DNA of 64,000 bases from positions 1 to 64,000 of the IMG/VR virus record IMGVR_UViG_3300035126_000631. The stretch is one strand, 5' to 3'. Position numbers and translations under genes: made by a program. The DNA comes from a virus. This document shows, piece by piece, positions 2,622-61,658 of the stretch. The first letter of the stretch is position 1. Every line of letters starts with the position of its first letter. A model generated the notes under the pieces. The model saw nothing but the letters and a program-made list of their open reading frames with translations, was not told where the DNA came from and did not search any database.

Positions 2622-2641
2622 TAATAACCACACAACATATT

Positions 2642-2818
2642 ATGGACATCACCAACATCATCCAAGTGGTCAGTTCCTTGAACTGGCTGGAAATCCTCGG
2701 AGCGGCCTACGGCCTCATCCTCGCCTTGATCGCGATCTTCGCGCTCATCCCCGGCGAGCAGCCGGAGAAGACGCTCAAGGCGATCGCCAACATCGTCGCG
2801 AAGTTCTCCCGCAAATGA
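2642..2818 (+). CDS. putative holin (58 aa, not in the ORF track)
   Basis: MDITNIIQVVSSLNWLEILGAAYGLILALIAIFALIPGEQPEK...FSRK: hydrophobic segment with a basic C-terminus, in the lysis cassette. Confidence 0.6.
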   Translation: MDITNIIQVVSSLNWLEILGAAYGLILALIAIFALIPGEQPEKTLKAIANIVAKFSRK

Positions 2819-2958
2819 AATACGTGGTCACGGCGGTGGCGTTTTTTCTCACCGGCTGCGTGACCCCGAAAATCGGGTTCGGCTACGACTTCCTCAATCA
2901 AAGGGTGACGGTCTCGGTCGAGCCGGGCGACGGGAAAAAAGTGGTCAAGCCTGAGTAG
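2815..2958 (+). CDS. small lipoprotein, spanin-like (47 aa, not in the ORF track)
   Basis: MKYVVTAVAFFLTGC has a lipobox; ATGA overlap with the upstream gene; sits immediately before the endolysin. Confidence 0.6.
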   Translation: MKYVVTAVAFFLTGCVTPKIGFGYDFLNQRVTVSVEPGDGKKVVKPE

Positions 2959-2959
2959 T

Positions 2960-3475
2960 ATGATTCAAAAGCTGGCGGATGTCGCGATGTCCCAGGTGGG
3001 GGTGCGTGAATCAGGTGGCAACAACCGCGGAGCCAAAGTCCGCGTCTACCAAGCCGCATCGAACTTGCCGCCTGGGCCCTGGCCGTGGTGCGCGGCCTTT
3101 GTCGATTGGTGCGTGCAGCAGTGGCTCGGGTATCCTGAAGCGAAGAATTGGCTCGGGTTGAAGCATAGCTCGCCTGCGAAATGGCGACCGACCACGGCAC
3201 TGGCTTTCGGTCTGATCGAGTGGGGCCGCAAGCGTCCGAACACCGTCACAGTCTTGCCGGAGAAGACGACCCCGAAGGCGGGCGACATCATCGTCTTTGA
3301 TTTCAGCCACACGGGCATCGTGGTAGGTGCGACCTCCAAGATCGTCGAGTGCGTCGAGGGGAATACCAACGGACGCGGCGACCGGGACTCGGAGACGGGC
3401 GACGGGGTCTGGCTCAAGAAACGCAATCTTTCGCTGGCTCGGTGCTATCTGCGGATCCATCCGAGCAAAGCGTAA
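2960..3475 (+). CDS. endolysin, CHAP-family cysteine peptidase/amidase
   Basis: PWCAAFV, HTGIV and VEGNT motifs. Confidence 0.85.
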   Translation: MIQKLADVAMSQVGVRESGGNNRGAKVRVYQAASNLPPGPWPWCAAFVDWCVQQWLGYPEAKNWLGLKHSSPAKWRPTTALAFGLIEWGRKRPNTVTVLPEKTTPKAGDIIVFDFSHTGIVVGATSKIVECVEGNTNGRGDRDSETGDGVWLKKRNLSLARCYLRIHPSKA

Positions 3476-3484
3476 TAACTCCAC

Positions 3485-3772
3485 ATGAAACAAACCGCCA
3501 ACAGTTACCGCCGCAACGAACTCCTGCAAACGTCGCTGGCCGAAACCCTGAAGCAGAACCACGTCCAACTCGCGCTCCAAGTGCTCCGTGAACTCGGGGA
3601 GCCGACCGAAATGCCAGCACCGGACAATGTCGATTTTCTCATCCACAGCGCCCTCCTGAATTCCCGCCGTGAGGGCTTCTTCCACGCGCTTCGCTCCCTC
3701 GAAGCCCTGGCCACGCCGATCAAGGTGGCCTCCTCGACCAAAGACCTTATGCCGAATCTAGTCGACGAATAA
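3485..3772 (+). CDS. small head-morphogenesis-region protein
   Basis: 95 aa containing an REG motif, immediately before the scaffold, a position common in podoviruses. Confidence 0.5.
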   Translation: MKQTANSYRRNELLQTSLAETLKQNHVQLALQVLRELGEPTEMPAPDNVDFLIHSALLNSRREGFFHALRSLEALATPIKVASSTKDLMPNLVDE

Positions 3773-3775
3773 TTT

Positions 3776-5059: not shown

Positions 5060-5100
5060 TTTGTTTCCATACCCCTCCGGGAACTTCGGTGACCGGACGC

Positions 5101-5137
5101 GAGGCGGTTCCTTCCAGGGAGCCGCCTCTGCATTTTT
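5101..5137 (+). terminator. intrinsic terminator after the scaffold gene
   Basis: GAGGCGGTTCC/GGAGCCGCCTC hairpin followed closely by TTTTT. Confidence 0.6.
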
Positions 5138-5251
5138 CGGTGGATAGAAAAGGCTACAGATTTACATAAGTGTGGTCGGATCTATAACAATCTCTCGGTA
5201 GTTTTTGTGACGGCGATGTCCTGCATGAGGGAGCAAGCATAACCCCACAAT

Positions 5252-5279
5252 TTGACAACCCCTTATGCTGCCGTATCTT
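5252..5279 (+). promoter_or_regulatory. sigma70-like promoter upstream of the major capsid gene
   Basis: TTGACA-N16-TATCTT in the 400-bp intergenic region. Confidence 0.55.
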
Positions 5280-5465
5280 AGTCTCACGTTTACGGGTAGC
5301 GGCAATCATCCGGTAGAAATCAGAAAGTTAGGTTCGCGAGGAAGCCCGATCCGCGACGGGAAGAGAAAAGCAAAATCGTGGTGTTGTCACTAGCCTCGGA
5401 CCGCATGTGCGTCTCCCGATCAAGGCGAAGTAATAACCCCACAAATTAGGAGAAAAACAAGCATT

Positions 5466-6641
5466 ATGCCTTGCAATAATATTGAAGCTCTCTTCGTGGA
5501 ACATGCCGGCCTCATCCGGAACAATGTCTCGAAGAACATCATCAACTCCGATTTCTACCTGAAGTATCTGCCGCGTGAGCAGTGGATGGACGGGCAAGGA
5601 ACGGAATATAGTTACCCGATCTACGAGCGCACGCTCTCGTCCAGCCCCGTCACTTTTAGTGCATGGGAGTCTTCGGACGGCGAAGCGGGCGGTCAGTGCC
5701 AAGTCGCCGGTCAGAACATCGACAACTTCGGCATCACCCTGCGCCAGACCAGCCTCAAAAAGGCCGCGCTGAACTCGCCCGACATCTGTTTGGACGATCT
5801 TCAGTTCGCCTGGCAGGTCGAAGATCAGGTCAAAAACATCGTTCGCGTTCTTTCCGAGAACACGAAATGGGTTTGGACCAACGCTTATCAGGACGAGTAT
5901 ATCGACGCTTGCGGCACCAAAATGGTCGCATCGGCGAACCTCCCGTCTGGTAGCTCGGTCTTCCCTTCGACTCCGGCCACTTCCAAACTTACCTGGGGAA
6001 TCCTCGAAGAGATCTACCAGCAGCTTGGTTACAATGGCGGCAGCATGAATCCGTTTGCTCGCGTTGACGAGATGACCCCGATTTATGCCGCAGTCGGCGA
6101 GCGTTTCACGTTCCATGACCTCAAGCGCCAAGACGCTAACACCCGTGACGACTTCCGTTACGCTTACGAGGGTTCGGAGACCCAGTCCCCGATGCTCGGA
6201 GCGCCCGGTCTGTCTGGCGTGTATCGCGGCTTCCGCTTCTTCACGGTTGAATTCCCGCCCCGTTACGACTTCGTCGGCGGTGCATGGGTTCGCCGTCAGC
6301 CGTTCGCGTCGACCCCGACGACGAAAGGTGACAAGTGGGAAGTGTCCGACGCCTACAAGAATGCGGAATACACCGACACCGTGATTTATCACGCTGACGT
6401 GTTGAAGGTTCTTGTGCCCAAGCCGAAAGCTGCCAGCCCGATGAAGTATAACCCCCAGTATAGCTGGACCGGTGAATTCGTCTGGCGGAATATCCCTGAC
6501 CGCGACTGCAACGTCGATGGAAATACAGGGTTCTTCCGGGCACTCTTCGCGTATGGCCCGAAGGTGGAGCGTCCTGACCTCGGCTTTGTGGTTCGCCACA
6601 AACGCTGCGCTCGCGCTCTCGACCTCGTCGCTTGCTACTAA
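5466..6641 (+). CDS. major capsid protein
   Basis: 391 aa, follows the scaffold, strong codon bias, AGGAG RBS, followed by a strong hairpin. Confidence 0.75.
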   Translation: MPCNNIEALFVEHAGLIRNNVSKNIINSDFYLKYLPREQWMDGQGTEYSYPIYERTLSSSPVTFSAWESSDGEAGGQCQVAGQNIDNFGITLRQTSLKKAALNSPDICLDDLQFAWQVEDQVKNIVRVLSENTKWVWTNAYQDEYIDACGTKMVASANLPSGSSVFPSTPATSKLTWGILEEIYQQLGYNGGSMNPFARVDEMTPIYAAVGERFTFHDLKRQDANTRDDFRYAYEGSETQSPMLGAPGLSGVYRGFRFFTVEFPPRYDFVGGAWVRRQPFASTPTTKGDKWEVSDAYKNAEYTDTVIYHADVLKVLVPKPKAASPMKYNPQYSWTGEFVWRNIPDRDCNVDGNTGFFRALFAYGPKVERPDLGFVVRHKRCARALDLVACY

Positions 6642-6644
6642 GGT

Positions 6645-6695
6645 AGCACCTCACATCACTCTGGGAGCTTCGGCTCCCAGGGTGCCAGAGGTGCT
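6645..6695 (+). terminator. stable hairpin/terminator after the capsid gene
   Basis: CACTCTGGGAGC-TTCG-GCTCCCAGGGTG (cUUCGg loop) with an outer AGCACCTC/GAGGTGCT stem. Confidence 0.65.
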
Positions 6696-6706
6696 CCATT
6701 TCTAGC

Positions 6707-7009: not shown

Positions 7010-7014
7010 ACATT

Positions 7015-7230: not shown

Positions 7231-7234
7231 TCGC

Positions 7235-10072: not shown

Positions 10073-10230
10073 TGGCCGAAGTCAAAGAACTCTTCAGTTT
10101 GGATGATTCACTGACCACGGTTCAGGATTCATGGAGCAGTTTACCCGCCGGGCTCACACTGCTCATTGAAGATTCTCCGACTGAGTATACCTTACTGATC
10201 GACGACACCTTTTCTCTTTTGATCGAATAA
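10072..10230 (+). CDS. small acidic protein (52 aa, not in the ORF track)
   Basis: TAATG coupling to the nozzle gene; repeated LLIE/LLID. Confidence 0.45.
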   Translation: MAEVKELFSLDDSLTTVQDSWSSLPAGLTLLIEDSPTEYTLLIDDTFSLLIE

Positions 10231-10243
10231 TAACCCCGCAACC

Positions 10244-11932: not shown

Positions 11933-11937
11933 GAATT

Positions 11938-12513: not shown

Positions 12514-12522
12514 CCATCTACT

Positions 12523-13053: not shown

Positions 13054-13055
13054 CC

Positions 13056-17521: not shown

Positions 17522-17531
17522 TATAATAACT

Positions 17532-17879
17532 GTGCAACCCGCATGGCAAATCGCAAAACAATGGCACGAGAAATACATCCCAGAGCAGCCGTTTTCGGAA
17601 GCTGTCGTGAACTGTCTGAAAGAGGGAGTTCTCTACTCTTCTCCGGAGATTTTTGTGTGCGGACGGGAAGTGCTTTGGGACGGGGAGACGGTCTACATGA
17701 GTAATCACCCTAACGCATGGTTTGTCCACATGGCCGCTTCGAGTGGTCACACCAATCCGGTCAGAGCCTTCATGCAGGCCGCGACAAAACCCCGTCGCTG
17801 GGTGTTGTGGCACCGTCGCAACGAAGACCGTCTCCGTATTTTTAAGTGGGAAACTCTAGCTAGGAAGGTGGGTCTCTAA
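17532..17879 (+). CDS. GNAT-like small protein preceding the internal virion genes
   Basis: AWFVHMAA motif; position equivalent to the acetyltransferase-like gene before podovirus ejection proteins; GTG start. Confidence 0.45.
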   Translation: MQPAWQIAKQWHEKYIPEQPFSEAVVNCLKEGVLYSSPEIFVCGREVLWDGETVYMSNHPNAWFVHMAASSGHTNPVRAFMQAATKPRRWVLWHRRNEDRLRIFKWETLARKVGL

Positions 17880-20244: not shown

Positions 20245-20730
20245 ATGCTTACATCAGTCCTATCTCCCATTAGCATTGCCACTCCAGACACCGCGCCCCC
20301 TTGGGGCTGGAACCCGGCAGCGACGTTTCTGACTGCGTATAACACGCAAGCACAAGCGCGCCGCGATCAGGAAAAGTTTAACATGGCCATGCAGTTGGAA
20401 AGAATTCTTCTTCCAGCCAAAGCGGCTCAAGCCGAGTTCACCCTCAATCAACTCGCCTACGAGACGGAGAACATGGCGAACTCCTATCGTCTGCAAAACG
20501 AAATGGTCAACGAGCGCCGACGCATCATCAGAACTGGCGGCTCCGGTGCCAGCAGCAATGTTGCGGGGAACGGTGGTTCTTCGAATCAGGCTCCTGCTCA
20601 AGATGAGGATCCGACTAGCTTCAATTTGACGGGCACTAGTTATGACCGGAAGCCGGCCGCTCAATCGCAGCCGCAGACGAGTAGTCAGCCGATGGCTAAG
20701 AAGAAAGTGGTAGACTTAACAGGGGTCTAA
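20245..20730 (+). CDS. internal virion protein
   Basis: Q/A/N-rich, no Cys, in the ejectosome cluster. Confidence 0.5.
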   Translation: MLTSVLSPISIATPDTAPPWGWNPAATFLTAYNTQAQARRDQEKFNMAMQLERILLPAKAAQAEFTLNQLAYETENMANSYRLQNEMVNERRRIIRTGGSGASSNVAGNGGSSNQAPAQDEDPTSFNLTGTSYDRKPAAQSQPQTSSQPMAKKKVVDLTGV

Positions 20731-20734
20731 TAAC

Positions 20735-42192: not shown

Positions 42193-44585
42193 ATTAGTTC
42201 CTTTCTTGTGTGGGGTTATTACAAAGCCTCATCGAATTCGATGGGTAGGGTGAGTTGCGGGTCGGCTTGCTCTTTCCGGGCAAGCTGGACGAGGTGCGCG
42301 TGACGCAAGACGAGTGAAGAGAGGCGCAATGCCGCCTCGATGTCGTAGTCGTGGGTCGCATTGAAGTGCGCCGCCGACTCAAGGATCAGTGATTTGTTCA
42401 TGTGGTTTCCTTTCTGTTTGGTTAAGCGGCCTCGCACGAAACGCTTCGCGCAAAAGCCAAGACTTGTTCCGGCGTGTCCAAGACAAAGTGAACAGTCGGG
42501 GTGGAGTTGTCTGCCGGATCGCCGTCGATATGCCAGATCTCCGACCTCTCATTGCTGATGTGCCGGATGCTGACATGGATCCGGTCGCCGACTTCGGGGA
42601 CGCTGGCATCCTCAAATGCGGTGAGCATGATCTCGGTGTTCCAGTTCTCGTCGGTGAACTCGGGGTATCGATGGGTGACGAGGGCATCGCAGCCCCCGCC
42701 AGTCCCGATCTTGCAGAACCCGCACTTGCGGAGTTCTTCGTGTAGTTCTTCGGTTGTCATGTTGGTTCCTTTCTATTTGGTTAGTTCGGTGACGACGTAA
42801 TCGTTCTTCACTCGGGAGTCCTTGAGGATGTCGCGGATGTCGTCCTTGGTGAACGCAGTCGTGGCATACGCTTGCACTTGGTAGTCGTCACCCTCCGAAG
42901 GATGAATCCACGCAGACAAGCGGTGCTTGTATCCCTGCCGGATCATCTTGGCATCCAACGCCGCTTGCTCCTTGGCTTTCTTCGCTTCGATCTTGGCCCA
43001 CTCGCGTTGGAACTTTGCGGCCCGCTTGGCGTAGCTCTTCTCCTTGCGCTCCAACTTGGCGATGCCTTTGCCGTCGATGAACTCGGCAAGCAACTCTTTG
43101 GCTCGCTTGTTGAAGTCCTCCTTGTCGATGGTCTTGTCGCGCAGGAACTCGGACTCGGCATTACAAGCGCCATTACGGAGCGCGACTTTCAACTGCAAGC
43201 CGTAGCCCGCATACATATTGGAACATGGGCTGATCTCGTAGTAAACGGACTGCCCTTTGCGTGTGTATTTCTTCATGTGTTTTCCTTTCGTTGTCCGGTG
43301 ATCGGACTAATCATTGGTGATAGTGGTTTTCGGTGTGACGCCTTCGTTCTCCATCCACGCAAACAAGCGGGGTTCGAGGTCGGCGAGTTTGTCGGAGATG
43401 AACGAGTCGTTCTCGAGGACGAGCATATATTTGCCGTTGTCGGTCTCCTCGATGATGTAGTTGGCATACGGCTCCACCGGATCGTGGATGCCGTTGTAAA
43501 CCCATGCGACCATTGGGCCATCAGGGTTCTTGAACTCGTCCTTCGGGAACGTGTGCAGTTGTTTCGGGTATGTTTTCATTTGACCTCCCATTTGATTTCT
43601 TCAGTTAGCTTCACGACTTCCGACCAATCGTTCGTCGCAAGCAGTGTCTTCATCTCGTTCTCACCAGCGTGAGGAGTGAGCAGCACTACGGCATAGCGAA
43701 ACCCTTGGTCGCCGTTCTCGCGTAGTGACGGGTCTTTGTAATCGACGAAGACCATGAGCGTCTTCGGGTGAACAGCACCCGCGTCGATCTCTCGTGCGAT
43801 ACTCGGACACGCATCGTGGCTCCACGACGAGTCGTTGAATCCTTCCAACTCTGGAAGGGTGTCGTCGTAATCAGGGAACATTACTTTGTATTTTGGTTTC
43901 ATATTCAGTTTCCTTTCTGTGGTAGGTTTGCTTCTTCGATCCCCAGCCAAGACCAACGCTCCAAGGTGCGCTTGTATCCGGTGGGCTTTTCTTTCGTGCT
44001 GCTCAAGCTGGCGATGATGCTGTCGGCATACTCGCACAGCGTGTCGGTGTCGGTGTCGATGGGTAGCCCTGTGCAGTAGGACGCATCGTCCAGTCCCTCC
44101 CAATCGCTGTTGGCGTTTTCGCGCCAGTCGATTGAGAAGCGCAAGAGCGGCGTATCGTCTGGATCTTCATCGTTGTAGTCGCCGCTCCATCCCTCGCCGA
44201 TGTCCTCCCAAACGAAGCGGATGTTGTCTTTGATTACTTCGATGTCGGTGAATGGTGGATATGTTTTCATATTCAGTTTCCTTTCTTTAGTTGTTGAGTT
44301 TGGGATGCTGCTGCACCCACTTCAGTTCCTTGTGCGCCTTACTCATCTCAAGCATGACGCACAGTTTCCGCCACGCCTTGCGGGCATGGTCGTTGGCAAT
44401 ACCGAATTGCCTCTCGTCGAGAGCGTGCGAGGCACGCTCCATCTCCGCATCGGCACAATCGAAGTGCTCCACGATGCACGCTTCATGCTGCATGATGCGG
44501 TAATCCAGCCACGGGATCATCGTGCCGCCCGTCTCGATCGGCTTGAGTAGTGTCCTGCTCATAGGTCAGTTGTCCGGTGACCGGA

Positions 44586-45704
44586 CTACACGATGCCGTC
44601 GAGAAGACGCTGGCTCTGCGGGATGAAGCTGCTCATACCCTGCAACTGTTCGAGTTCCTCTTCCGCCGTCAGATCGACCTCGCGCATCGTGGCGTAGGTC
44701 GCCAGATCGTCGTCGAGGTTGTGCTGCGTCAGACCAATGTCCTCGGAACGTGCGGCCAAGCCGTCATACTTTCCGCTCGGCACTGTGACTGTGCTGTATG
44801 CACCTTCGGACTTCTTCTCGAAGCGGAACTCCGAGAGCTTGGGCTGCGAACCTCGGGGGCCGGAAGCCCATGAGGTGTCGATGGGGGCAAGGCTGCGACC
44901 GAGGCTGGCCGAAGCGTATTGCGACTCGCGGCTGGTCGTGTCGCCGTGCAGCCAGCGACTCACCTTGGGATCGCCGCCGTTCTTCGGGAACTCCAACCAT
45001 GACCAGTCGTCGATGGCGAAGGCTTCGAGCGACTTGCAACGCCACGCATCGCCGATCGCTTCGACAATCTCCGGCTTCGTGCCGAAGATCCAGCGACCTT
45101 TCTTGGTGATGCCAGCATACAACGACGCCATCGAATCGACGGCGACGATGAGCTTGCCGCTCGGGGCGAGGGCGAGGAACGCAGCGTAGCCCGTGATGTG
45201 CATCATGGCTTCCCGCTGTTTCTCCGGATCGCCAGCGTTGTCGGTCAACGCATAGAGCAAGTGCTGCGAATCGCACGTTGCCTTGTTGTGGTGCTTGGTC
45301 TGCTTGCCGTGCCAAGTGACCACGCCATTGTGGGCCAACGACCAGCCGTCATGCCGGAACGGGTGCGTGTTGCCAAGGTTCACGGCACACGTTGCAGTGC
45401 GTCCGTGGACGATGGTGGACTTCATCCGGTTGTAGTATCCGGTCTGCTCGAACCGCTTGCTGGCGGCGAAGGCGGAGAAGCCGTCTCCCGCGAGCTTGGA
45501 CAACTGGGGCAACGCATCGAGCGTGCGGAAGTCATCGGGTTTCACATAGCGACCGCGCAGACCATTGGGTCCGGCTTGGGCGAAACCGAAGCCGTGACGC
45601 TCGGTTCTGCCGATTGCTTCTGCCGCTGCGACAAGGGCTTTGTCGGCGGAGTGTCGGGTCAAAGGCGAGGCTTTGCTCGCTGTCCATCCTGCTAATTTAC
45701 ACAT
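44586..45704 (-). CDS. class II (Ntn) glutamine amidotransferase-like protein
   Basis: N-terminal MC, HGFG, HGRTAT, NTHPF, AHNGVV, CDSQ. Confidence 0.85.
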   Translation of the reverse strand: MCKLAGWTASKASPLTRHSADKALVAAAEAIGRTERHGFGFAQAGPNGLRGRYVKPDDFRTLDALPQLSKLAGDGFSAFAASKRFEQTGYYNRMKSTIVHGRTATCAVNLGNTHPFRHDGWSLAHNGVVTWHGKQTKHHNKATCDSQHLLYALTDNAGDPEKQREAMMHITGYAAFLALAPSGKLIVAVDSMASLYAGITKKGRWIFGTKPEIVEAIGDAWRCKSLEAFAIDDWSWLEFPKNGGDPKVSRWLHGDTTSRESQYASASLGRSLAPIDTSWASGPRGSQPKLSEFRFEKKSEGAYSTVTVPSGKYDGLAARSEDIGLTQHNLDDDLATYATMREVDLTAEEELEQLQGMSSFIPQSQRLLDGIV

Positions 45705-45759
45705 GGTATTTGTTTCCTTTCGTTATGGTTGATGTTGTTTGTCCGGTGATCGGACTAGT

Positions 45760-47091
45760 TCACTGATCGTCCGTGCTGCAAACGGCAGTCACGGCTTGGC
45801 GCGGCATCCGGCGGTAGCCGGACAAGCGCGTGTCGGAAGCGTCGAACTGACGCACGAACTCGTCGCACTTGACCGCCCCGTAGCGGTCAACACTGCGCGA
45901 GGTGTTGTTGATGGTGCGGACTTTGGCCTTCATCGCTTTGATGATGTCCTTGAGCGTCTCCGGCTCATGGATCGCGGCCCACCGATAGAACGATGCCCAC
46001 GCTTGCGGCGCGGTTTCGTTGGTGACGGACGCCTCGGGCGTCACGTTGTCCTCGCTCCACCGGGCGATGGCTTGCATGAGGGCGGCACGCATCCGCCACT
46101 CGCTCGGCTTGCGACTCGTCGGCCACAAGCGGACTTCGATCGTGCCGAGTCGCTCGAACTGGGCGGCACTGACCGCCGAATACTTGCGACCCAAGGCGTC
46201 ATCCCAATTCTCGCAGCAAGCGTTGACCGCACACCAACGAGAGCGGCGGCGGGTCAACGGCGCAAGATACCGGAACCATGACAAGTGGTAACGCAACGAG
46301 TAGTAGACGGCTTGGCCGTAGTCCTCGGCACGTTTGCAGTTGATGTGGATGTGACCGCCGTTGCGCTCGATCGAACCGAGGTTGCTGACCAAGTTGCAAG
46401 CGACATCGGGCAACTTCTGCGTGATGCGGAAGCGGATCTCATGCTGACCGCCGCCATCGCGACCGACATCCCAGTAGGGTTTCTGGTAGCTGCGGATGCG
46501 GTTGGTGCTGACGCTGCGTCCGGTCGGCGTGGTCTTGTAACCATGCAAGCCAGTCGCTTCCAACTCACCACTGCACTCGTAGAGCGGAAGCCGATCCCAA
46601 TACTCCGGAGTCAGAGGCTCGGGGAGCATCTGCTTGATCTTGGACTTCTCGATCGACTTGAGGAACTGACCGACTCCCTTGACGACCTCACGCTGATTTG
46701 CAGATCCGAACCAGTCGTTGCCGAAGTGACAGCGGATGCGCTCGATGAGATCCTGCAACGTGCCGCCATCCTTGCGGAAGGTGCGACGATACAGCTTGCG
46801 ATGCCGGAGACATCCGACGATGACCGAAGCCACGCCGCGCAGATGCCGACGCTGACGCTCGGCCCGCTCGTCGCGGTAACGCCGATAGACTCGTTCATAA
46901 GCCCTCTTGAGCACCGCCTTGTCGTCGTAATTGAGGACGTAGTAGTTCGGTGCCGAGTCGAGCGTGACCGGACTGTCCTTGGACTTCGCCCAGTTGTTGC
47001 GGAGATACCAATAGGCATACCGACCATCCTCCGAGAGATGCATCGGCTTCGATGCGACCTCGGCCAGTTGTAGTGTGGAGTTATTACTCAT
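45760..47091 (-). CDS. putative amidoligase (glutamine synthetase/COOH-NH2 ligase fold)
   Basis: GELE, DGGG.HEIR, NGGHIHIN, KYSAVS, GTIEVRL; adjacent to the GATase. Confidence 0.7.
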   Translation of the reverse strand: MSNNSTLQLAEVASKPMHLSEDGRYAYWYLRNNWAKSKDSPVTLDSAPNYYVLNYDDKAVLKRAYERVYRRYRDERAERQRRHLRGVASVIVGCLRHRKLYRRTFRKDGGTLQDLIERIRCHFGNDWFGSANQREVVKGVGQFLKSIEKSKIKQMLPEPLTPEYWDRLPLYECSGELEATGLHGYKTTPTGRSVSTNRIRSYQKPYWDVGRDGGGQHEIRFRITQKLPDVACNLVSNLGSIERNGGHIHINCKRAEDYGQAVYYSLRYHLSWFRYLAPLTRRRSRWCAVNACCENWDDALGRKYSAVSAAQFERLGTIEVRLWPTSRKPSEWRMRAALMQAIARWSEDNVTPEASVTNETAPQAWASFYRWAAIHEPETLKDIIKAMKAKVRTINNTSRSVDRYGAVKCDEFVRQFDASDTRLSGYRRMPRQAVTAVCSTDDQ

Positions 47092-48682
47092 AGGTCTAAC
47101 TTTCCTTTCATGTGTTGTTTGGTTGTTGCTTGTCCGGTGATCGGACAACTCTGTCCGGTTTGAACAAGCCATCCGCCCCCTCGCATGGAAGGGGCGGTGC
47201 GGCTTGCACAGTTATTACTTGTCGGCGAACTGACCGACGAACTTGCGAGGGTTGATCCACTCGCCGTGCGGCATCTCGATGGCGTCATGCCATACCAACT
47301 CGAAGTCGTGGCCTCGGTCGTAAGTGTTGACCTTGGTCACGCCCCGATCACGGAACACCGAGAACGATGCGCGGCGTCCGACTCCATTGAGCCGTTCGCG
47401 TGTCGTCACAGTGTCCCATCCAGCCAACGTGATCTCGATGTCGCCGTTGTCTGCATGACGCGCAATCGCATTGCCATGCAGCCAGATCGTCGTGCCATCG
47501 GTTCGGGTATTGCCGCACTTGCGGGGACGCCGATTGAAGAAGGCGTCAGTCACTTCTCTCGTTACTTTTCTCATACTGTTTCTCTCTTTCTAAATGTCCG
47601 GAATTCCGGACAAGGTTGTGGAGTTATTACTTGGTGATCTCGATGAGGAGCCAGACAGCAACGAAGCACAAGGCCGCGAAGCTGAAGAGCAATTCGTCGA
47701 GTTGATTCGGGGTGGGCCGTTTCATCGTGTGGAGTTATTATCCGAGTTGAGCCACCTTGGGAAGCAAATCCGCAAAGGGGTTGAACGTGAGCGGATTAGC
47801 CGCCGCCCGATAATCGTTGCCGCCGATCAGATCGACCGCAGCGTTGCGCTTCTCCTCAACCGAAAGACCACGAGCGTTGCGCTCGGATGTCCGGTCAAGT
47901 CTGTAGTCTGTTTTGCTGGCACTCGCCAACAGGATGTGGATGGTTCGTTTCATCTGTCTGTTTTGATTCCTTGTCCGATCACCGGACAAGTCTCGCCGTA
48001 TTGGGCAAGGGACAACGCAAGACGGATGGAACGTCTTGCGCTGATACTTTGCTCACCTCGGACATGATGCACCGCAACGGGTCGGACGTTGCATGGTGCA
48101 TGGTTCATGGTTCACGCTGCGGGGTTCGCGTTGTCCGGTCACCGGACTATTTGCGGAACAAGCGAGCGACGACAGCGCGATACAGCTTCTTGTCTCCGCC
48201 TACGAGTTTGAGCAGCGCGGCTTCCGCCTTGGGAAGCATGGCGTCGATCTTCTCGCTGGCCTCTGCACGGCTCTTCGACTTGGCGCGACGAGTGATGCCG
48301 TAGGATTGGAGCAACTCACTGATGCGCTGTTTCGCGTAGCCATTCGCCTTGAGCGTGGCCGTGACCTCTGCAACGTCGATCGCTTCGCGATTGTCCTTGA
48401 TGAACGCGCAAAGCGTTTCGCGTTGCATTGTCGCCGCTTGGGTCAGGGTTTCGATTTGATGGATCTCGCGAGCGATTGCATCGTTCACGCTGTCCTTCGT
48501 TTCTGCCACGCGGTAGTTGATGCTGATGGTGATGTGGTTCTTTTTCATATACTGATCTTTCTTTCTGTTTGGTTGTTGTCCGGTGATCGGACAGCGTCTT
48601 GCTGCCCTTTCCGGTTCATTAATAAGTGACCAGCAGCGCGATTTACTCTGTTAGGAGAGGGGAAAATGTGCGATTATTACGG

Positions 48683-49285
48683 ATGCCCAGACCGCCCCTT
48701 TCTGTAGACTGGCAAGCAATTCGCGGACTCTACCTTCAAGGAGTCGAACCTTTGACGTTAGCGAATAAGTTTGCAATCAAGATAAGCACCTTGAATTCAA
48801 GGATTTACAGAGAGAAGTGGCATGAGATATTGCAAGGGGAAAAGAAAACGAATGAGAAGGCGAGAGAGGAAAGCGTAGCAATCGCAAGGGACATCTGGAC
48901 AGAGAGACGAGAGACAATCCGAGAGCGCATCCATCTCATAGGTGATCGAATGACCCTTGCAGCTTCGCAACTCTCTGAAGATCAACTAATTAACAAAGCA
49001 GACAAGATCAAGATTGCGACAGAGATTGCTGGCAAATCAGTAGGCTTGGACAGAGAGGAAGACCGGAACCAAGTAAACATCGCCATCTTGGGCGCAATAG
49101 GCTCAAAATCAGGTGCTTATGATGATATTGTGCAAGGTGAGGTCTGGTCAGAATCGGGTCGAAACCTACCCGCTAACAGTGTAGAGCACACGGAATCCGA
49201 ATCCGTGAACACCACCACCCAACCCACCACTGTCCCCCTCGACCCAGCCGCGCCACTGTATGATAATATAAATAATGGGTTCTAA
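48683..49285 (+). CDS. terminase small subunit-like HTH protein
   Basis: DWQAIRGLY..G.....LANKF.I...TL..R..REKW N-terminus plus a helical region. Confidence 0.6.
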   Translation: MPRPPLSVDWQAIRGLYLQGVEPLTLANKFAIKISTLNSRIYREKWHEILQGEKKTNEKAREESVAIARDIWTERRETIRERIHLIGDRMTLAASQLSEDQLINKADKIKIATEIAGKSVGLDREEDRNQVNIAILGAIGSKSGAYDDIVQGEVWSESGRNLPANSVEHTESESVNTTTQPTTVPLDPAAPLYDNINNGF

Positions 49286-53414: not shown

Positions 53415-53431
53415 ATTGAGTGGTGGAGTTA

Positions 53432-54808
53432 TTATTTACGGTAATGTTTGGATACGATGGCTTCGGCTCCCAGCGGGAGGTCCGAGGCCCAAATTGGTGG
53501 GGTCGACATGATTTCTTCGATCACTTGGCGGTGATCTTCGGCGTCATATTCATCGACGAGGACGACGACTTCATCGTGGATACGCATGAGGATTTCATAA
53601 CCAGCGTCTTCCAGTGCCATGCAGCGGTCCATGAAGACATCACGGGCAAGCGCCTGCGTGGCATTTTCCGCCAGCAAGCCCCCATACAGCTTTACGTCCA
53701 TGAGCTTCCCGAGTCTCGGGAGCTTGGCGACGATGTTGCCGGTGATGCGCCGAACGTCGCGGTAAACGAGTTCTCGTCCGGAGGGTAGGGGAATTTCCAA
53801 AGTCTTGTCGTTTGGGTCGGTGGCGATGCGGAGCGCACGATCGAGCTTGGCCCACAGTGCGGTGATCTTCGGAGACGACTCGCGGTAGGACTGCACAATT
53901 TGTTGCGATTCCTCGAAAGATATGTCGAGTCCGGCCAGCATCTTGGCGACGAGTTGGAACTTCGCCGCACCGCAGCCATAACCAAGACCAAGCACACGGG
54001 CCTTGGCGAGAAAGCGCATCTTCGGATCCACTTCCTTGAGTGGGCGGGGGTCGTTGTATCCCATCGTCGCCCTGGCGTGCGCCTCGTAGATGTCGATACC
54101 GGAGGCGATCAGTTTGAGGAGATCCTTGTCGCCCGCGAGGTAGGGGAGGCAGCGTGCTTCGATCTGGGCAAGATCGCAGATGACGAGTGTATTCCCCGCG
54201 GGAGCCTCGATGAGGTTGCGGATATCCACGCCGGCCACTTCTCCTTTGGGGATATTCTGGGCGTTCCAGCCGCCCCCTCCGCTATCCCGTCCGGTTGTGG
54301 CACCGAAGTATTTAAGCTCGTAGCCCATCCGACCGTCGGGCCGCGTCCGGGCAATCATCGCCTGCACGGTCTTCAAATGTTTGTTGGCCTTACGGTAGTC
54401 GCGCACAGCGCGAACCCACGGAAACTTGTCGGCGAACTCCGCTTCCCATGCCGCACCCTCGGGATCTTTCTCCGCAAAGGACTTCGGTGAGCGGATACCT
54501 TCCTTCTCGCACTGGTCGCGGATCGCTTGCAGGGAGAGGGGAGGATATTCACCACCGATCCAAGGAAGAAGAGCCTCGGTCCGGCGCTTCTCCTCGATGA
54601 GCTTGGCTTCCGCGGCCTTGAGCTTCTCCATGTTGACTGGCACCCCGCGCATTCCCATCCGGCGCGTCATAGCCGAGATCCGCCACTCATGGTCGGGCAT
54701 CTTATGGCCATGCTCCTTCCAGAGCATGAAGGTGGCCTTCGCGTCATGGAGCGCGTAGCGGGCGACTTCTTTTTTGAAGTCGTTGGTCATGTAAGGGCTC
54801 TTAGGCAT
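53432..54808 (-). CDS. DNA polymerase family A, C-terminal part (ExoIII plus polymerase domain)
   Basis: YALHD, TGR, NAQNIP, motif A DLAQIEAR, motif B KARVLGLGYG, motif C IHDEV. Confidence 0.92.
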   Translation of the reverse strand: MPKSPYMTNDFKKEVARYALHDAKATFMLWKEHGHKMPDHEWRISAMTRRMGMRGVPVNMEKLKAAEAKLIEEKRRTEALLPWIGGEYPPLSLQAIRDQCEKEGIRSPKSFAEKDPEGAAWEAEFADKFPWVRAVRDYRKANKHLKTVQAMIARTRPDGRMGYELKYFGATTGRDSGGGGWNAQNIPKGEVAGVDIRNLIEAPAGNTLVICDLAQIEARCLPYLAGDKDLLKLIASGIDIYEAHARATMGYNDPRPLKEVDPKMRFLAKARVLGLGYGCGAAKFQLVAKMLAGLDISFEESQQIVQSYRESSPKITALWAKLDRALRIATDPNDKTLEIPLPSGRELVYRDVRRITGNIVAKLPRLGKLMDVKLYGGLLAENATQALARDVFMDRCMALEDAGYEILMRIHDEVVVLVDEYDAEDHRQVIEEIMSTPPIWASDLPLGAEAIVSKHYRK

Positions 54809-55725: not shown

Positions 55726-56962
55726 AGTTCGTAGCATGGTCGCGTGGGGTCGAACGCTGCCGGCGGTGGAAGCTGTGAGCGTAGCCACTCGATCTCGGTG
55801 AGAAGGTCTCCAGCAAAGAGGCAAAGGTCATCGACCAGTTCCTCTTGGGCGGCGATTTCGTCAATCAACTGCCCAAGCGTTGTGAAAGAATCACGCGGCC
55901 CGAAGTTGATGCGCCCGATGGTGTATTCTGCGTTCATAGTATTTTTGCCGTTGCTGCTTTGTGAATTTTCGCTTTTTGGATTTCGGAGTTGTCCGGTGCC
56001 AGTTTCCGCAATACAGGCAGAGATAGATGTCTTGCCCGGGAAACCGTGCCTGCTCCTCGGTCAGGTAGGCGCGTTTTGTCATGCAGCCGGATATAAAATC
56101 GGTCTTCACAACTCATTCCTCCTCCTCCTCTTCCGCCTTGCGATCCGCTTCACGTTCTTCTTCGCAGTCACACTCTCCGTAGAAGCCTTCGCAATACTCG
56201 CAGTATTGTTCCATTGGGTCGTTGCGTCTGGCCCAGTAGTGAGCTTCTTCAGCGTCCATGCCTTGCGCTTCGTCGCGGTCCTGATCTGGGTCACTCGGCA
56301 TTTTGATCCTCCCGTAGCTTATAGCCCATCGCCCATGCGAAGATGGCTCCGTAGGTTGCGAGTCCGCCGAGCATAATGCCGACGGCGAGACCGATGAGAA
56401 ACCAGCCGGCGCTCATGCTGTCCTCCAGAAACGAAGGCGATCAACGCCCTCTCCGTCAGTGACGAGTCTAGTCGCGAACTTCTTACCGGAGCGACGGCCA
56501 GTGCTTGAGGCAATGGACCGCAGCCCATTGAAGCCTTCACAAGTCGAAGCCGGATAGACGAACGAGTCGCCGACGTTGAGCTTGGATAAAAGCCACGACA
56601 GCGGGTGTTGATACCGCGACTGTTCACCGGGCTTCTTGTCCGCGAGTGGAACGTCCTCATCGATGACGATTTGGTAAGTCCTCACTTTGCGTCCCCTCCT
56701 TTAGCAGCGAGCCATGCGCCGAACCCGAGAAGTCCTAGCCACGAGAAGAATAGTCCGATGGCCGCGGTCATTTGATCCCCCCGACAAATTCACGCTGGCG
56801 CTCGGTCAGCAGATTTTCCTTCCACTCCTGTAACTCCCATTGCGCGAGTTCTTCCGACATCTGGTGGCGCTTATGAACCTCCAGATAGGCGGAGCCAAAC
56901 CCGACAACCACGGCGGTGGTGACAGCCATCGCCATGACGGAACAGAATCGACGTGCGGTCAT
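55722..56962 (-). other. run of small hypothetical CDSs in the replication operon
   Basis: 55722..55937, 55891..56109 (YLCLYCGNWH), 56113..56301 (CxxC), 56413..56685 (DNA-binding-like, LNVGDSF) and a TM-containing ORF ending at 56768. Confidence 0.55.
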
Positions 56963-58345: not shown

Positions 58346-58362
58346 ATATAGTGATGGAGTTA

Positions 58363-60777
58363 TTATTTCTGTTTCTTGAGGTAGTGATACGCTCCCTCTG
58401 AGCGGGCCGCATCGGCGTCAACCAATGCGTCACGAAGGTTGTCTTTGGCCCGTTTCATCTCACCGCGGGGTGCGGTGCGGGCGATGGCTTTCTCTAGCGC
58501 ACCGATGGAGACTTCGGCGCAGGCGGCGAATGCCTCGGGGCTGATCCGGTCGCGGACCACGTCCCACGCTTTCTGGGCGTCGGTGACCTTGAAGGGGAGG
58601 GCACGTTCGGCCAGTTCGTAGCCTGGGATCTCGATACCCTCTTCGAGTCGCATTTGAAGGGCACGTTGATCGACCTTCTCAGCCCACGACTTCATAATCG
58701 GCGCGGCCCGTTTGGCGAGCGCAATAACGTGCGGGTCGGCGATGTTCGCCGGATCGTATTGCGCCGGCAGTGCGAGTTCGTCGGCCTTGTATTGGGTGGC
58801 GATCGTCAGTGCGAGTGACGACAACTTCGGGCAACTCGCCTGTTTCGCGCACCAAGCGCAATGCGATCCGGTTAAATAGGTCGCGGGGTCATCCCGCCTA
58901 GCAGCAGCTATAATGGCGGTGATTTGCGCGGAGAGACGCTCATAGTCTTTTTCCCGAGACCACGTCTCCTTGTCGATGACCCCGCGAAAGGGCAAAAGCA
59001 CATGCACAGTTATTTCACTGACCTCCGGATGAGCGTCCCAGAGGCCGACGGCATACGCCCAGAATTGCGGTGAATCGGCGACGTATTCACCGAAGGCAAA
59101 TTTGTAATCAATCAACTCGGCTTTGTCGCCGTGTAGGATGATGTGGTCGACATGACCGAACTGGTCCTGCATGTAATATTTTTGCTCCCGAAGCTCCTTG
59201 TGCGGGCCGACTTGTTTGCGGAGCGATGCTAAGTATTTGAGGCACTGGTCGGCCGCTTCCCGCAGCTTCGGGTCATCTGGCGGGATGACATCGAGATTTT
59301 CTTTCTCCACCGCGAGGTGCCCGAGAGTTCCGCGGTTCGCTGCGCTCTTGTCGCGGGTCTGGTCGTTGCGAAAACCGGGGCACTTGGCCTTCTCTTTGAG
59401 GCTCGAAGGGGAGTGCTCGCTGTGCTCTTTTTCTTCGGGTTGTGGAGTTATTTCAGCGGGCATGGAAGTAGAGACATCACCCCATTTACTTTCGTTCAAA
59501 TTATTTTCTCCGCGGTTTAAGATCGCCACATTTTCACGTTTTTCGGCGGTCAATTTCAACGCAGCTTGCTCAACGGTGCCGCCAGCAAAGAGTCGGATGG
59601 CCAGCGCACGGGACTTGGCACCGACCCTGCAAATACGACCCACCGCCTGTTCCTCGACGGTTCCGGAAAACTGCGGACATAGCAGAGCAACTCGCGGGTA
59701 ACGTCCGTCCAGATCGTGAAGGTCGATGGACTGTCCACCGGCTGCGATCTGCACGATGACGGCCCGGAGGTCGTTCCTTTGAAAGGAATCTTGGGTCTTT
59801 TTTCTCTCAGTTTGGGGGACGCGGCCGTCGATGACTTCTGCCTCGGGGAACTGCTTTTTCGCTGTGTCGATGCTTTCATGGAAATTCAAAAAGAGGACGA
59901 CCGAGCCACCGGACTCGACGATCTCCTTCGCCCGTTCGACGATGTAGGGCACTTTGACCAGTTCGATCGCCTGACGTTGCCGCAGGTTTTTGACCCCACC
60001 AGGATCATCCGGATCGGCCATCTCGTCATAGAGTTCCTTGATCGTCGCCTTGTCCTTCGGACTCAACCACAGCGGGTCATCCTCGGTCATCAGTTCCGGC
60101 AACTGCTCCCTGAGTGTTTCCTCGGAAACGCGGTATCCTCTGTTCGCGAATACCGAATGGTGCAGCCGTTCCATTGCGACCTTGTTGGCCGGTAGTTTGG
60201 GATTCCATTCGATGCCACCCCAGCGTGATTCTTCGGCCCCCATCTCACGGACCCACTTCCAAAAGTAGCCGGAGGTGAAGAGCCGGAGATTCACCCCGAT
60301 CGCCTTCATCCGGAGGGGATTTTCTGCCGCCGTGGCCGAAAGCATGAGGACATAGTTCCCCGCCGCGGCCTCCAGCATCTTCCCGTTCTGCGAGTTGTAG
60401 GCTCCGAACATGTGAACCTCATCGAATATGAAGAGACACCGAGCGGGAACCTGCCACTCGTAGGCAAACTTCTTTCCTCCTTTGGAGACCTTTTTGAGCC
60501 AGGGCGTGTTCCCGTTCCGTAACTTTTCTGGGTTCAGGACGAAGAGCGGATCGACCCCGAAGCTGGACAGGGTATCTGTCCATTTCGAGAGGACCGACTT
60601 TGGGGCGATCACCCCAATGGGCAAAGCGAACCGAGCCGCTACACTACTGGCAATGACTGTCTTTCCTCCCCCGCACCCTGTCCCGTCGAGTGACGATCCG
60701 ACAGAGTCGAGGATTTTGAGGTGGCGGTCGACTGCTTCCTTCTGGTAGGGAAAAAGGTTGAACGTCTTGGTGGGCAT
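58363..60777 (-). CDS. SF2 helicase fused to a PD-(D/E)xK Cas4/DUF2800-like nuclease
   Basis: GGGKT, DEVH, SAT, QAVGRICR; then HSPSSL..CPG, GTLGH, GHVD, IDYK, HCAWC...CP. Confidence 0.85.
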   Translation of the reverse strand: MPTKTFNLFPYQKEAVDRHLKILDSVGSSLDGTGCGGGKTVIASSVAARFALPIGVIAPKSVLSKWTDTLSSFGVDPLFVLNPEKLRNGNTPWLKKVSKGGKKFAYEWQVPARCLFIFDEVHMFGAYNSQNGKMLEAAAGNYVLMLSATAAENPLRMKAIGVNLRLFTSGYFWKWVREMGAEESRWGGIEWNPKLPANKVAMERLHHSVFANRGYRVSEETLREQLPELMTEDDPLWLSPKDKATIKELYDEMADPDDPGGVKNLRQRQAIELVKVPYIVERAKEIVESGGSVVLFLNFHESIDTAKKQFPEAEVIDGRVPQTERKKTQDSFQRNDLRAVIVQIAAGGQSIDLHDLDGRYPRVALLCPQFSGTVEEQAVGRICRVGAKSRALAIRLFAGGTVEQAALKLTAEKRENVAILNRGENNLNESKWGDVSTSMPAEITPQPEEKEHSEHSPSSLKEKAKCPGFRNDQTRDKSAANRGTLGHLAVEKENLDVIPPDDPKLREAADQCLKYLASLRKQVGPHKELREQKYYMQDQFGHVDHIILHGDKAELIDYKFAFGEYVADSPQFWAYAVGLWDAHPEVSEITVHVLLPFRGVIDKETWSREKDYERLSAQITAIIAAARRDDPATYLTGSHCAWCAKQASCPKLSSLALTIATQYKADELALPAQYDPANIADPHVIALAKRAAPIMKSWAEKVDQRALQMRLEEGIEIPGYELAERALPFKVTDAQKAWDVVRDRISPEAFAACAEVSIGALEKAIARTAPRGEMKRAKDNLRDALVDADAARSEGAYHYLKKQK

Positions 60778-60790
60778 AACGTCTAAAAAT

Positions 60791-61036
60791 ATGATGAAAA
60801 TTATTAACTCAGTAGTCGTAGCAAGTTTGTTAGCTGGAAGTGCATGGGCCGGAGAGGTTTCCTATATCGTCGACCCGAGCGGGAATAACCAAATCGTCTG
60901 GGTCCAGAGGCAGGGCAATATCCTGTATGTCACAGAGTCGGATGACATGAAGCTGGAGCGCATGTCTCGTCGCATGTCGGAACGCCGTCGCATGTCGTCG
61001 GAGAGTTTGCTTGGCGATCTTCTGGACATTCGCTAA
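60791..61036 (+). CDS. small secreted protein, antisense to the operon (moron-like)
   Basis: Signal peptide MKIINSVVVASLLAGSAWA; AT-richer 5' end. Confidence 0.6.
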   Translation: MMKIINSVVVASLLAGSAWAGEVSYIVDPSGNNQIVWVQRQGNILYVTESDDMKLERMSRRMSERRRMSSESLLGDLLDIR

Positions 61037-61358
61037 CCACGCGGTCGGACTCCTTTACGAGTTCCAACCAATCAGCGGCGAGCATCGTGACTAACCACGG
61101 CTCGCCGTTTTTCTTGTGCGCGACGACCGGCGTCTTCGTGCCGCTATCGGCAATCGCCTGCTTCATCGCGTTGAGCACGTTGAGATTCTGCACCCCTTTC
61201 ACTTCGAAGTGCATTGAAGGCAATTCAGGACAAACCACATCGGCATTGCCTGCGGCACCGCAATACTGCTGACCGCGGAAAGCCTTGAGGAATCCGGCCT
61301 CGCGGAGTTGATCCCGCCAGAGCCGCTCGACCCGTTTGCCTTTCTGCCGCGAGTTCAC
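60930..61358 (-). CDS. Holliday-junction-resolvase-like PD-(D/E)xK nuclease
   Basis: NSRQKGKR.ER, ADV, HFEVK, A.KQA, P.V.HKKN..PW; GTGA overlap with the upstream gene. Confidence 0.8.
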   Translation of the reverse strand: MNSRQKGKRVERLWRDQLREAGFLKAFRGQQYCGAAGNADVVCPELPSMHFEVKGVQNLNVLNAMKQAIADSGTKTPVVAHKKNGEPWLVTMLAADWLELVKESDRVVSECPEDRQANSPTTCDGVPTCDETCAPASCHPTL

Positions 61359-61645
61359 GGCAACGCGCTCCCCAGTCGGCCTTGCGCCCACAGCACGAGA
61401 TCATCGTCGTTGTAGACGATCTTCTTGTCCCCGAGCCGGACGAAGGGGAGACCCTGTTTTCGCCAGTAGTTCAACGAAGCGTAAGTGAAAGGTTTACCTA
61501 AAAGTTCACTCAGCCGGGCGACAGCCTCGCCGGCACTATAGACCGCTTTGCGCGGTTGCGCGGGCTCGGCTATTTCTAGTCGGACCCGACCTTCTCCTAT
61601 CGGTGTCGCCCTGAATGAGGCGCACTCGATCGTCATGGTGGTCAT
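61355..61645 (-). CDS. excisionase/MerR-like HTH DNA-binding protein
   Basis: SLNYWRKQGLPFVRLG.KKIVY...DL..W. Confidence 0.7.
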   Translation of the reverse strand: MTTMTIECASFRATPIGEGRVRLEIAEPAQPRKAVYSAGEAVARLSELLGKPFTYASLNYWRKQGLPFVRLGDKKIVYNDDDLVLWAQGRLGSALP

Positions 61646-61658
61646 GTGGAGTTATTAT

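Follow-up and report, generated by a model that had tools for sequence, protein, structure and literature searches.

What reads a short, strictly oriented DNA word that recurs ahead of genes in all parts of a phage genome? This question is raised by a 64-kb stretch of viral DNA (the window), which forms the first 64 kb of a 74,043-bp IMG/VR virus record (IMGVR_UViG_3300035126_000631) that is rated 100% complete and represents an uncultured, temperate freshwater phage with an integrase gene and a GC content of 57%. An initial annotation of the window had described a 12-mer, TAATAACTCCAC, at about 20 gene junctions and had offered four functions for it, namely a short phage-type promoter, an antitermination or ops-like site, an RNA cleavage site or a translation-coupling element. 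Here, we demonstrate that the word is part of a motif which is a conserved, phage-specific invention of one phage clade, and we tentatively propose, with a confidence just short of even, that this motif is a clade-specific, -10-only promoter at which host polymerase, together with an unrecognised phage factor, would start transcription.

A polarised motif at gene junctions

First, the motif is enriched and strictly polarised. All eight exact copies of TAATAACTCCAC listed in the initial annotation were recovered in place in the window, compared with none in 100 shuffles; with up to two mismatches there are 18 matches where 1.59 are expected, and words from TAATAACTCCAC are the most over-represented 9-mers of the genome. 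The comparison with a Markov background that the initial annotation had suggested was carried out with a weight matrix (cut-off at least 10 bits) trained solely on five complete relatives (G001-G005), which avoids circularity. On the 74-kb genome this matrix found 26 sites, against 0.67 expected from Markov simulations, and all 26 are in the sense orientation of the local genes with none antisense, in agreement with a genome-wide signal that follows transcription. A synonymous-codon shuffle for avoidance of the antisense word in coding sequence, a test without power, gave four observed occurrences against 4.6 expected. According to coding-potential gene calls, the genome consists of two divergent arms that start near 63.7 kb, and motif copies occur in both, before structural, accessory and replication genes, which bears out the claim that the signal spans all gene modules. 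The minus arm (63665 to 33094) encodes the integrase, two CopG/RHH proteins (RHH98 and RHH71) and a 96-amino-acid (aa) protein and, further along, a helicase-nuclease fusion, a split PolA, a DUF5906 primase, a dCMP deaminase, nucleotide-modification genes and a C5 methylase. The plus arm, which begins at 63854, crosses the end of the record and ends at 33116, encodes the large terminase (TerL), a capsid-like 391-aa protein, a probable portal assigned by position alone, tail proteins and a 3361-aa polyvalent virion protein.

Second, the conserved unit proved to be TAATAAC-N5-A with its flanks rather than the 12-mer as such. In the pool formed by this genome and the five relatives, whose PolA proteins are 83-95% identical, TAATAAC occurs 132 times; 118 of these occurrences are in sense to the local genes, and 102 of the 118 have an A at position 13 of the motif (A13). 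The logo of the 102 sites reads a-A-R-TAATAAC-n-C-C-R-Y-A-a, in which the invariance of TAATAAC results from the way the instances were selected, position 12 is a pyrimidine in 99 of 102 sites and position 14 is mostly A. The whole motif covers about 16 bases, made up of the core heptamer, five loose bases and then the A, and it has no -35-like partner, with an information content of at most 0.28 bit from -24 to -3 across the 102 sites. Three exact copies of TAATAACTGTGCAA are present as first reported, at 17524-17537 (+; 19.9 bits, after a 1196-aa gene), 36027-36040 (-; 19.9 bits) and 47204-47217 (-; 22.1 bits, with its TAA as the stop of a 119-aa gene), but they do not make up a separate TGTGCAA family: they are the same motif, differing at the loose positions 9-11.

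Third, the motif lies just upstream of start codons. About 90% of copies are within 45 nucleotides (nt) of one, at distances from A13 of 0 (eight cases), 1 (seven cases), 2-15 (about 40 cases) or 17-43 nt, and no full motif has a start codon before position 13. Starts less than 17 nt from A13 have no Shine-Dalgarno sequence (SD), and from 17 nt onwards they usually have GAAAGGAA or AGGAG. As had been noticed, the stop codon of the upstream gene often supplies the TAA (positions 1-3), which is the case at about 12 of the 26 copies. Among the other half or so, either a stop lies a few bases upstream or the upstream open reading frame (ORF) reads through the motif in another frame (67200 and 37443), and there are also copies without a nearby upstream gene (5431 and 36891) and copies inside genes (47086 and 59453). 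The signal is independent of translation termination, because about half of its copies do not use the TAA as a stop and some lie inside ORFs. Two junctions with TAATAACATG, at 20728-20737 (+) and genome 70496-70505 (+), have the heptamer in common, an ATG at position 8 and no A13, and the one at 70496 has its own upstream GGAG and is kept in G003-G005; these are probably ordinary stop-start junctions and not copies of the motif.

On the plus strand, the copy at 2622-2635 (TAATAACCACACAA; 24.4 bits) follows a TAG stop, precedes the ATG of a 58-aa gene by 8 nt counted from A13 and is kept in G002-G005. At 3473-3486 a CHAP-domain gene ends on the TAA and the ATG of a 95-aa gene begins at A13; this copy is kept in four of five relatives and reads TCATAAC in G001. 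An ATG directly after the motif, initially reported for 3473 and 61646, was seen at both and in a third case outside the window, at 65639. At 10228-10241 (TAATAACCCCGCAA; four of five relatives) the upstream stop again provides the TAA, with the ATG of a 562-aa gene 4 nt past A13, and the copy at 5431-5444 (28.0 bits; five of five relatives) lies 23 nt before the major-capsid-like gene (391 aa) and is followed by an AGGAG SD. A weak copy at 27105-27118 (TAATAATCCCCTAA; 16.5 bits) is within the 3361-aa ORF and of doubtful function.

On the minus strand, the first copy of the arm, at 61644-61657, directly follows an RHH gene, and the ATG of the 96-aa gene begins at its A13; all five relatives have this copy, with the ATG at +0, +1 or +4. 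Copies kept in four of five relatives lie between the helicase-nuclease gene and a 247-aa gene (58352-58365) and at the PolA/primase junction (53421-53434), where PolA ends on the TAA and the start base falls one position later (C13, A14). The copy at 47727-47740 (21.4 bits) takes its TAA from the upstream stop and is followed, 3 nt past the 12-mer, by the ATG of a 32-aa ORF, and that at 47616-47629 (27.2 bits) is followed by the palindrome TTGTCCGGAATTCCGGACA and a 119-aa gene. The upstream stop also serves as TAA at 42208-42221 (22.7 bits; then an SD and a 189-aa gene), in the variant TAATAAACCCACAA at 40351-40364 (18.8 bits; then an SD) and at 38456-38469, where the methylase ATG lies 7 nt past A13 and which is kept in G005. 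The variant TAATAAAACCATAA at 39539-39552 (19.6 bits) precedes the SD of a 113-aa gene, the copy at 37430-37443 (26.4 bits) lies in the 3' end of the C5-methylase ORF ahead of a GAAAGGAA SD and a 99-aa gene, and the copy at 36878-36891 (five of five relatives) is 17 nt before a 142-aa gene and has 217 nt free of called genes upstream.

The two intragenic copies of the initial annotation are real. One, at 47073-47086 (-; 12-mer at 47075-47086; 23.9 bits), occupies codons 2-6 of a 470-aa ORF, after an SD-preceded ATG, and is also found in G002. The other, AAATAACTCCACAA at 59440-59453 (-; 12-mer at 59442-59453; 16.2 bits), is in the helicase-nuclease gene, where TAATAAC occurs at the same place in G002-G005 and GAATAAC in G001. 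It sits between the helicase and PD-(D/E)XK nuclease halves of the 804-aa protein, and this conserved linker copy could serve as a start within the gene, either for the nuclease half or for genes further downstream.

Two translation-start regimes are apparent, in that most structural genes lack an SD, their start codon coming a few A/T-rich bases past the preceding stop, and the strong SD AGAAAGGAA occurs 15 times before minus-arm (early or accessory) genes and never on the plus arm. A second repeat, the palindrome TTGTCCGG-N3-CCGGACAA with its half-sites TCACCGGACAA, is found just upstream of SDs and at early genes only, within 43300-48600 (-), for example at 47590-47612, 44565-44585, 43280-43300 and 48555-48575; either a dimeric regulator binds it as an operator or it forms a hairpin in the RNA.

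Conservation and limits of the clade

Fourth, the motif is conserved in related phages, as the initial annotation had anticipated for a functional signal. At orthologous junctions it is kept in all five relatives before the capsid, 251-aa, 96-aa and 142-aa genes, and in four of the five before the primase, 247-aa, 562-aa and 95-aa genes and in the helicase-nuclease linker; with this genome included, the capsid gene has a copy in six of six. Positions 8-12 drift between orthologous sites, and TCATAAC is a recurring tolerated variant. A TerL alignment added 80 further IMG/VR contigs with 69-98% TerL identity, in which the density of TAATAAC-N5-A per kb is 0.24 (84-98% band), 0.13 (72-78%) and 0.27 (69-71%), compared with 0.004-0.018 per kb for the reversed word. 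The logo of the deepest band (69-71%) reads g-T-G-TAATAAC-C-nnn-Y-A-A. G411, a complete 83-kb relative with TerL and PolA identities of 41% and 44%, has neither the motif nor an analogous dispersed upstream word. A search for an analogous motif in other distant relatives ended with enriched words that are iteron clusters beside PolA or collagen-like coding repeats. The iterons form 33-bp tandem arrays directly downstream of PolA in distant relatives from Akkermansia and Akkermansiaceae assemblies and are probable replication origins.

The limits of the clade also separate the motif from the host. PolA identity to the nearest cultured phages is at most 29%, and the host is probably a member of Verrucomicrobiota, because PolA relatives at 40-48% identity sit in Akkermansia, Chthoniobacteraceae, Opitutae and Pontiellaceae assemblies. 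In 5 + 401 Verrucomicrobiota genomes the pattern TAATAACNCCRYA occurred 0-6 times per genome, not above the reversed control, which rules out a host promoter consensus and marks the motif as specific to the phages. Some genes share the boundaries of the motif: the integrase-proximal trio of RHH98, RHH71 and the 96-aa protein, together with one PD-(D/E)XK protein, occurs throughout the motif clade and was not detected in G411, and the 3361-aa virion protein is confined to the motif clade. Two small PD-(D/E)XK proteins are conserved in G001-G005; in the 69-71% band, the 153-aa one is present in 20 of 23 contigs and the 142-aa one in none of 23.

A promoter reading and its rivals

The best fit among the four functions offered initially is a short phage-type promoter. 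We computed directly how enriched, polarised and conserved the motif is, as well as its anatomy, its position at junctions and its restriction to the clade; DNA-level action, a start at A13 and the kind of reader are what we infer. In bacterial -10 elements and in leaderless-gene promoters, an A/T-rich stretch occupies -12 to -6 relative to a Y(-1)A(+1) step; if A13 is the start, the motif fits the former layout and, where the ATG begins at A13, also the latter. In the mechanism we propose, the A/T-rich TAATAAC would be recognised and melted at -12 to -6, positions 8-12 (n-C-C-R-Y) would be a loose G+C-rich discriminator and A13, after a pyrimidine, would be the first transcribed base. Transcripts would thus begin 0-43 nt ahead of the next gene, leaderless or with very short SD-less leaders at many junctions, and with short leaders containing GAAAGGAA or AGGAG at others. 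The variability of positions 8-12, set against the constant heptamer and A13, fits a discriminator better than a site that is read by a protein along its full length. Since no recognisable polymerase is encoded and no -35 partner is present, the reader may be the host core polymerase directed by a small phage factor, either a gp55-like sigma or a sigma-appropriating protein.

Moreover, another promoter class is needed because sigma70-like promoters are scarce. Genome-wide, neither sigma70-like promoters nor intrinsic terminators are above shuffles, and relaxed TTGACA-N16-18-TAnnnT has only six matches, two of them non-coding and in sense (5252-5279 and 55936-55965). The match at 55936-55965 (-), TTCACA-N18-TACTAT, lies in a gap near the halves of the split family A DNA polymerase. 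The one at 5252-5279 (+), TTGACA-N16-TATCTT, is the best match of the genome and forms part of the capsid gap (5060-5466, +), which contains, in this order, a strong intrinsic terminator (5101-5128; 12-bp stem and T tail, after a 427-aa gene), a degenerate motif copy (GCATAACCCCACAA, 5237-5250) that abuts the -35 hexamer, the sigma70-like promoter, a conserved leader of about 150 nt, the full copy at 5431 and the AGGAG SD. This layout is kept in six of six genomes. The hexamers are conserved and the 16-nt spacer varies; the hairpin of the terminator is in the same place in all six, with a different sequence in G001-G005; and the degenerate copy is a perfect TAATAAC in G003 and has one mismatch in G002, G004 and G005. 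A structured RNA in the capsid leader was considered and rejected, the covariation term of RNAalifold being positive and hence unsupportive. A second strong terminator (62033-62060, -; 10-bp G+C stem and T tail) follows the integrase-RHH98 unit and splits it from RHH71, the 96-aa gene and the replication genes. It is kept in at least five genomes (also G002-G005), with a different hairpin seen there by eye in G001, and a weak motif-like AGCATAAAACCACAA lies within about 10 nt of it. In the relatives, motif-like words lie 5-25 nt after both terminators, and eight of ten rank in the top 0.2-0.8% of random windows. Such words stand where a new transcription unit must begin, which supports a promoter, although this support is weakened by the degenerate copies here. 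We also count it in favour of a promoter that a copy precedes the capsid gene, the one in need of the strongest expression, in each of the six genomes.

The search for a protein reader extends the absence of a recognisable RNA polymerase or sigma factor, initially noted for the window, to six frames of the whole 74-kb genome. At this scope, no Rpb1 or Rpb2 domain and no Sigma70_r2 or r4_2 was detected, and the T7-type polymerase profile PF00940 gave no hit, a weak result as control genomes gave none either. About 55 ORFs compared with Pfam or PHROGs included no sigma match, a pattern search for polymerase motifs A/B/C was empty and PDB sequence searches with the 773-, 592-, 219- and 96-aa proteins returned nothing significant. 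Proteins like gp55 can escape ordinary sigma profiles. The ORFs above 400 aa are all otherwise assigned or have no polymerase match. An N4-like virion RNA polymerase within the 3361-aa ORF was rejected, as this protein has an LPD37 domain, an LPD38-type polyvalent look and a match to the PHROG 'virion structural protein' and shows no polymerase signal. The 592-aa protein, encoded by the first plus-arm gene (genome 63854-65632), was likewise rejected as a polymerase and is TerL, as judged from inteins in its homologues and 23% identity to an annotated TerL; several of these homologues measure about 940 aa and contain the intein/homing-endonuclease domains PF05203 and PF05204, and the copy here is intein-free. 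The 219-aa helix-turn-helix (HTH) protein was rejected as an L5-type repressor, its homologues carrying PF06056 (Terminase_5). Its small-terminase-like gene (48626-49285, +) forms a plus-strand island within the minus arm, 15 kb from the TerL gene. For the 96-aa protein no significant family or PDB match was obtained, and to our eye its sequence looks like an Xis/AlpA-type winged helix.

Several points weigh against a promoter. The six-frame searches found no RNA polymerase and no sigma region 2 or 4, and no candidate reader emerged. The same promoter class would stand before early, replication and structural genes, which leaves no obvious temporal programme, and the capsid gene already has a good sigma70-like promoter upstream (5252-5279), so that it could do without the copy at 5431. 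As a -10 hexamer TAATAA is non-canonical, having A or C in place of T(-7), and the commonest tolerated variant, TCATAAC, alters the would-be A(-11) in one register. The post-terminator copies of this genome itself are degenerate. SD-less starts after the motif are no proof of leaderless mRNAs, because many structural genes without the motif also lack an SD, and the boundary that excludes starts before A13 could come from sequence constraints alone. Finally, a temperate phage suits an explanation by repressor sites.

This last point leads to the main rival, stoperator-type repressor sites, which the initial annotation had not considered. Here, the motif would be an asymmetric phage-repressor site at about 25 junctions that blocks elongating host polymerase in one direction in the lysogen and so silences both arms, as the L5 gp71-type repressor does in Cluster A mycobacteriophages, an explanation we regard as unlikely on our analysis. 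The phage is indeed temperate, with an integrase, two CopG/RHH proteins and the adjoining 96-aa protein that is Xis/AlpA-like by reading alone. The site itself, asymmetric, 13-16 bp long, present in more than 20 copies in short intergenic spaces and oriented with transcription in both arms and all modules, has the traits of the published definition (PMC9283540). The first minus-arm copy, directly after the RHH gene, would halt read-through from the lysogeny unit into the genes for the Xis-like protein and replication. The small DNA-binding genes near the integrase are kept through the motif clade and were not detected in the motif-less G411. The degenerate copy at 5237-5250 abuts the -35 of the sigma70-like promoter much as an operator would; it is the sole copy beside such a promoter, which precedes the capsid gene and is not an early one. 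However, no gp71-like repressor was found, the only HTH protein of about 200 aa being small-terminase-like, and RHH proteins usually read repeated or symmetric sites. The pattern of conservation, a core invariant down to 69% TerL identity with positions 8-12 varying within the genome, is the opposite of what immunity-specificity evolution produces. In addition, repressor sites would explain neither the A/T-rich core nor the fixed distance of the Y-A step, and roadblocks right behind strong terminators would be redundant.

Alternatively, the motif could act in RNA, either as a site that a sequence-specific endoribonuclease would cut before A13 to release cistrons with short leaders, or as a ribosome re-initiation site or enhancer for genes that lack an SD, a possibility that we consider improbable. 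Strict sense polarity and a position at junctions fit any RNA signal, SD-less starts lie 0-15 nt downstream, and the copy at 5431, about 150 nt inside the leader from the promoter at 5252 and just before the capsid SD, makes processing plausible there. The two small PD-(D/E)XK proteins of G001-G005, of which the wider clade widely keeps the 153-aa one alone, are further points for it. However, RNases do not usually recognise a linear word of 16 nt with an invariant heptamer, the copies come without a hairpin, half of them are not at an in-frame stop and little RNA would cover those right behind strong terminators. For a ribosome-binding element, the ATG spacing of 0-43 nt is too variable, and the complementarity to host rRNA that the initial annotation had asked about amounts to no more than 5 nt of the invariant core in two Verrucomicrobiota 16S rRNAs. 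With the TAA unused as a stop at about half of the copies, this also makes translation coupling unlikely. The more specific claim that a sequence-specific phage or host endoribonuclease cuts all polycistronic transcripts before A13, giving leaderless or short-leader cistrons that are translated without an SD from their new 5' ends, we hold to be less probable still; it would be a bacterial-virus counterpart of the tRNA punctuation of mitochondria.

It is very unlikely that a phage-encoded RNA polymerase, single-subunit (T7-like) or otherwise cryptic, uses the motif as its promoter. About 25 near-identical copies per 74 kb do resemble T7-type promoters in density and uniformity, and the giant virion protein is confined to the motif clade, but the domain and motif searches described above came back empty (the PF00940 control being silent), the large ORFs are accounted for as TerL, probable portal (by position only), primase, PolA, helicase-nuclease and tail proteins, the giant protein contains LPD37 and resembles LPD38-type polyvalent proteins, and the start-adjacent bases are variable, unlike those of T7-type promoters. 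Least probable of all is a replication or recombination word (Chi-, KOPS- or primase-site-like) or a module-boundary linker for cassette exchange: the polarity does flip where the divergent arms meet and the accessory cassettes of the 37-47 kb region each have a copy, but copies cluster upstream of start codons instead of being spread through genes, their flanks are not homologous to one another and they are kept before core genes that are not exchanged.

Comparison with known systems

A literature search for the motif word returned nothing relevant, and one for a Verrucomicrobia promoter consensus returned nothing. A clade of uncultured temperate freshwater phages, with more than 80 contigs and no cultured relative and probably infecting Verrucomicrobiota, presents one precise expression signal and no recognisable polymerase or sigma factor. 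If the promoter reading is true, the motif marks the likely transcription units of these genomes and points to a factor that frees host polymerase from -35 elements and that would be of use as a genetic tool in a phylum that has almost none. If the repressor reading is true, genome-wide silencing of the stoperator type exists far outside the actinobacteriophages.

The late promoters of T4 are read by host core polymerase with the phage sigma gp55. Their consensus in T4-type phages is TATAAATA (PMC1524935), and, like the motif described here, they consist of a single short A/T-rich element near -10 without a -35 element, in dozens of near-identical copies directly before genes. If the promoter reading holds, both systems would also depend on a phage factor that escapes ordinary sigma profiles and works with the host core polymerase. 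In contrast to T4, the word is a different one, it precedes genes of the early, replication and structural groups, the phage is temperate, the start is deduced from sequence and no homologues of gp55, gp33 or the clamp loader were seen in this genome.

T7, T3 and SP6 promoters are likewise uniform, phage-specific words before many genes, and the first six bases of the motif resemble the T7 TAATAC. The likeness to T7/T3 promoters proposed in the initial annotation does not go further, as the A/T-rich block lies at -12 to -6 and not at -17 to -12, which is 5 bp nearer to the putative start, the bases from -5 to -1 are variable, the start base is A and not G, and no gene for a single-subunit polymerase was found in this genome. 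The ops/RfaH antitermination site is present once, in the leader of a long operon, whereas there are about 25 copies here, most of them between genes, which makes the ops-like function unlikely.

Leaderless-gene promoters of Actinobacteria and Deinococcus have TANNNT about 6-7 nt before the ATG. Similarly, the A/T-rich hexamer of the motif ends 6 nt before an A that, in eight cases, is the first base of the ATG, and an SD is missing. Unlike these promoters, the motif has an invariant and not a degenerate heptamer, gives a strictly leaderless arrangement at a minority of its copies and is not host-wide.

The stoperators of Cluster A mycobacteriophages, which are bound by monomeric two-domain immunity repressors such as L5 gp71 and the TipsytheTRex repressor, are asymmetric sites of about 13 bp with more than 20 intergenic copies in an orientation locked to transcription (PMC9283540; PMC6550527). 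The motif resembles them in its asymmetry, size, copy number, position in short intergenic spaces, locked orientation and presence in both arms of a temperate phage. It differs in that no gp71-type repressor was found, variation within one genome affects all but the core, which is constant over a deep clade, an A/T-rich core is combined with a Y-A step and the host is probably a member of Verrucomicrobiota and not of Actinobacteria.

Finally, the start-associated sequences (SAS) of Cluster K mycobacteriophages (GGGATAGGAGCCC) are 13-bp words in one orientation that are absent from the host genome and whose function is unexplained (PMC3203893). Both SAS and the motif are found just upstream of starts in one orientation and sometimes contain the upstream stop. 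An SAS, however, has an SD core, lies 3-7 bp from the start and is limited to the non-structural half of the genome, whereas the motif is without a G-rich SD, is 0-43 nt away from the start and is found in both halves. What is new is this word, its clade and the lack of any recognisable reader; its kind, a uniform phage-specific word placed before genes, is a known one, to which the promoters of T7, the late promoters of T4, the stoperators and the Cluster K SAS all belong.

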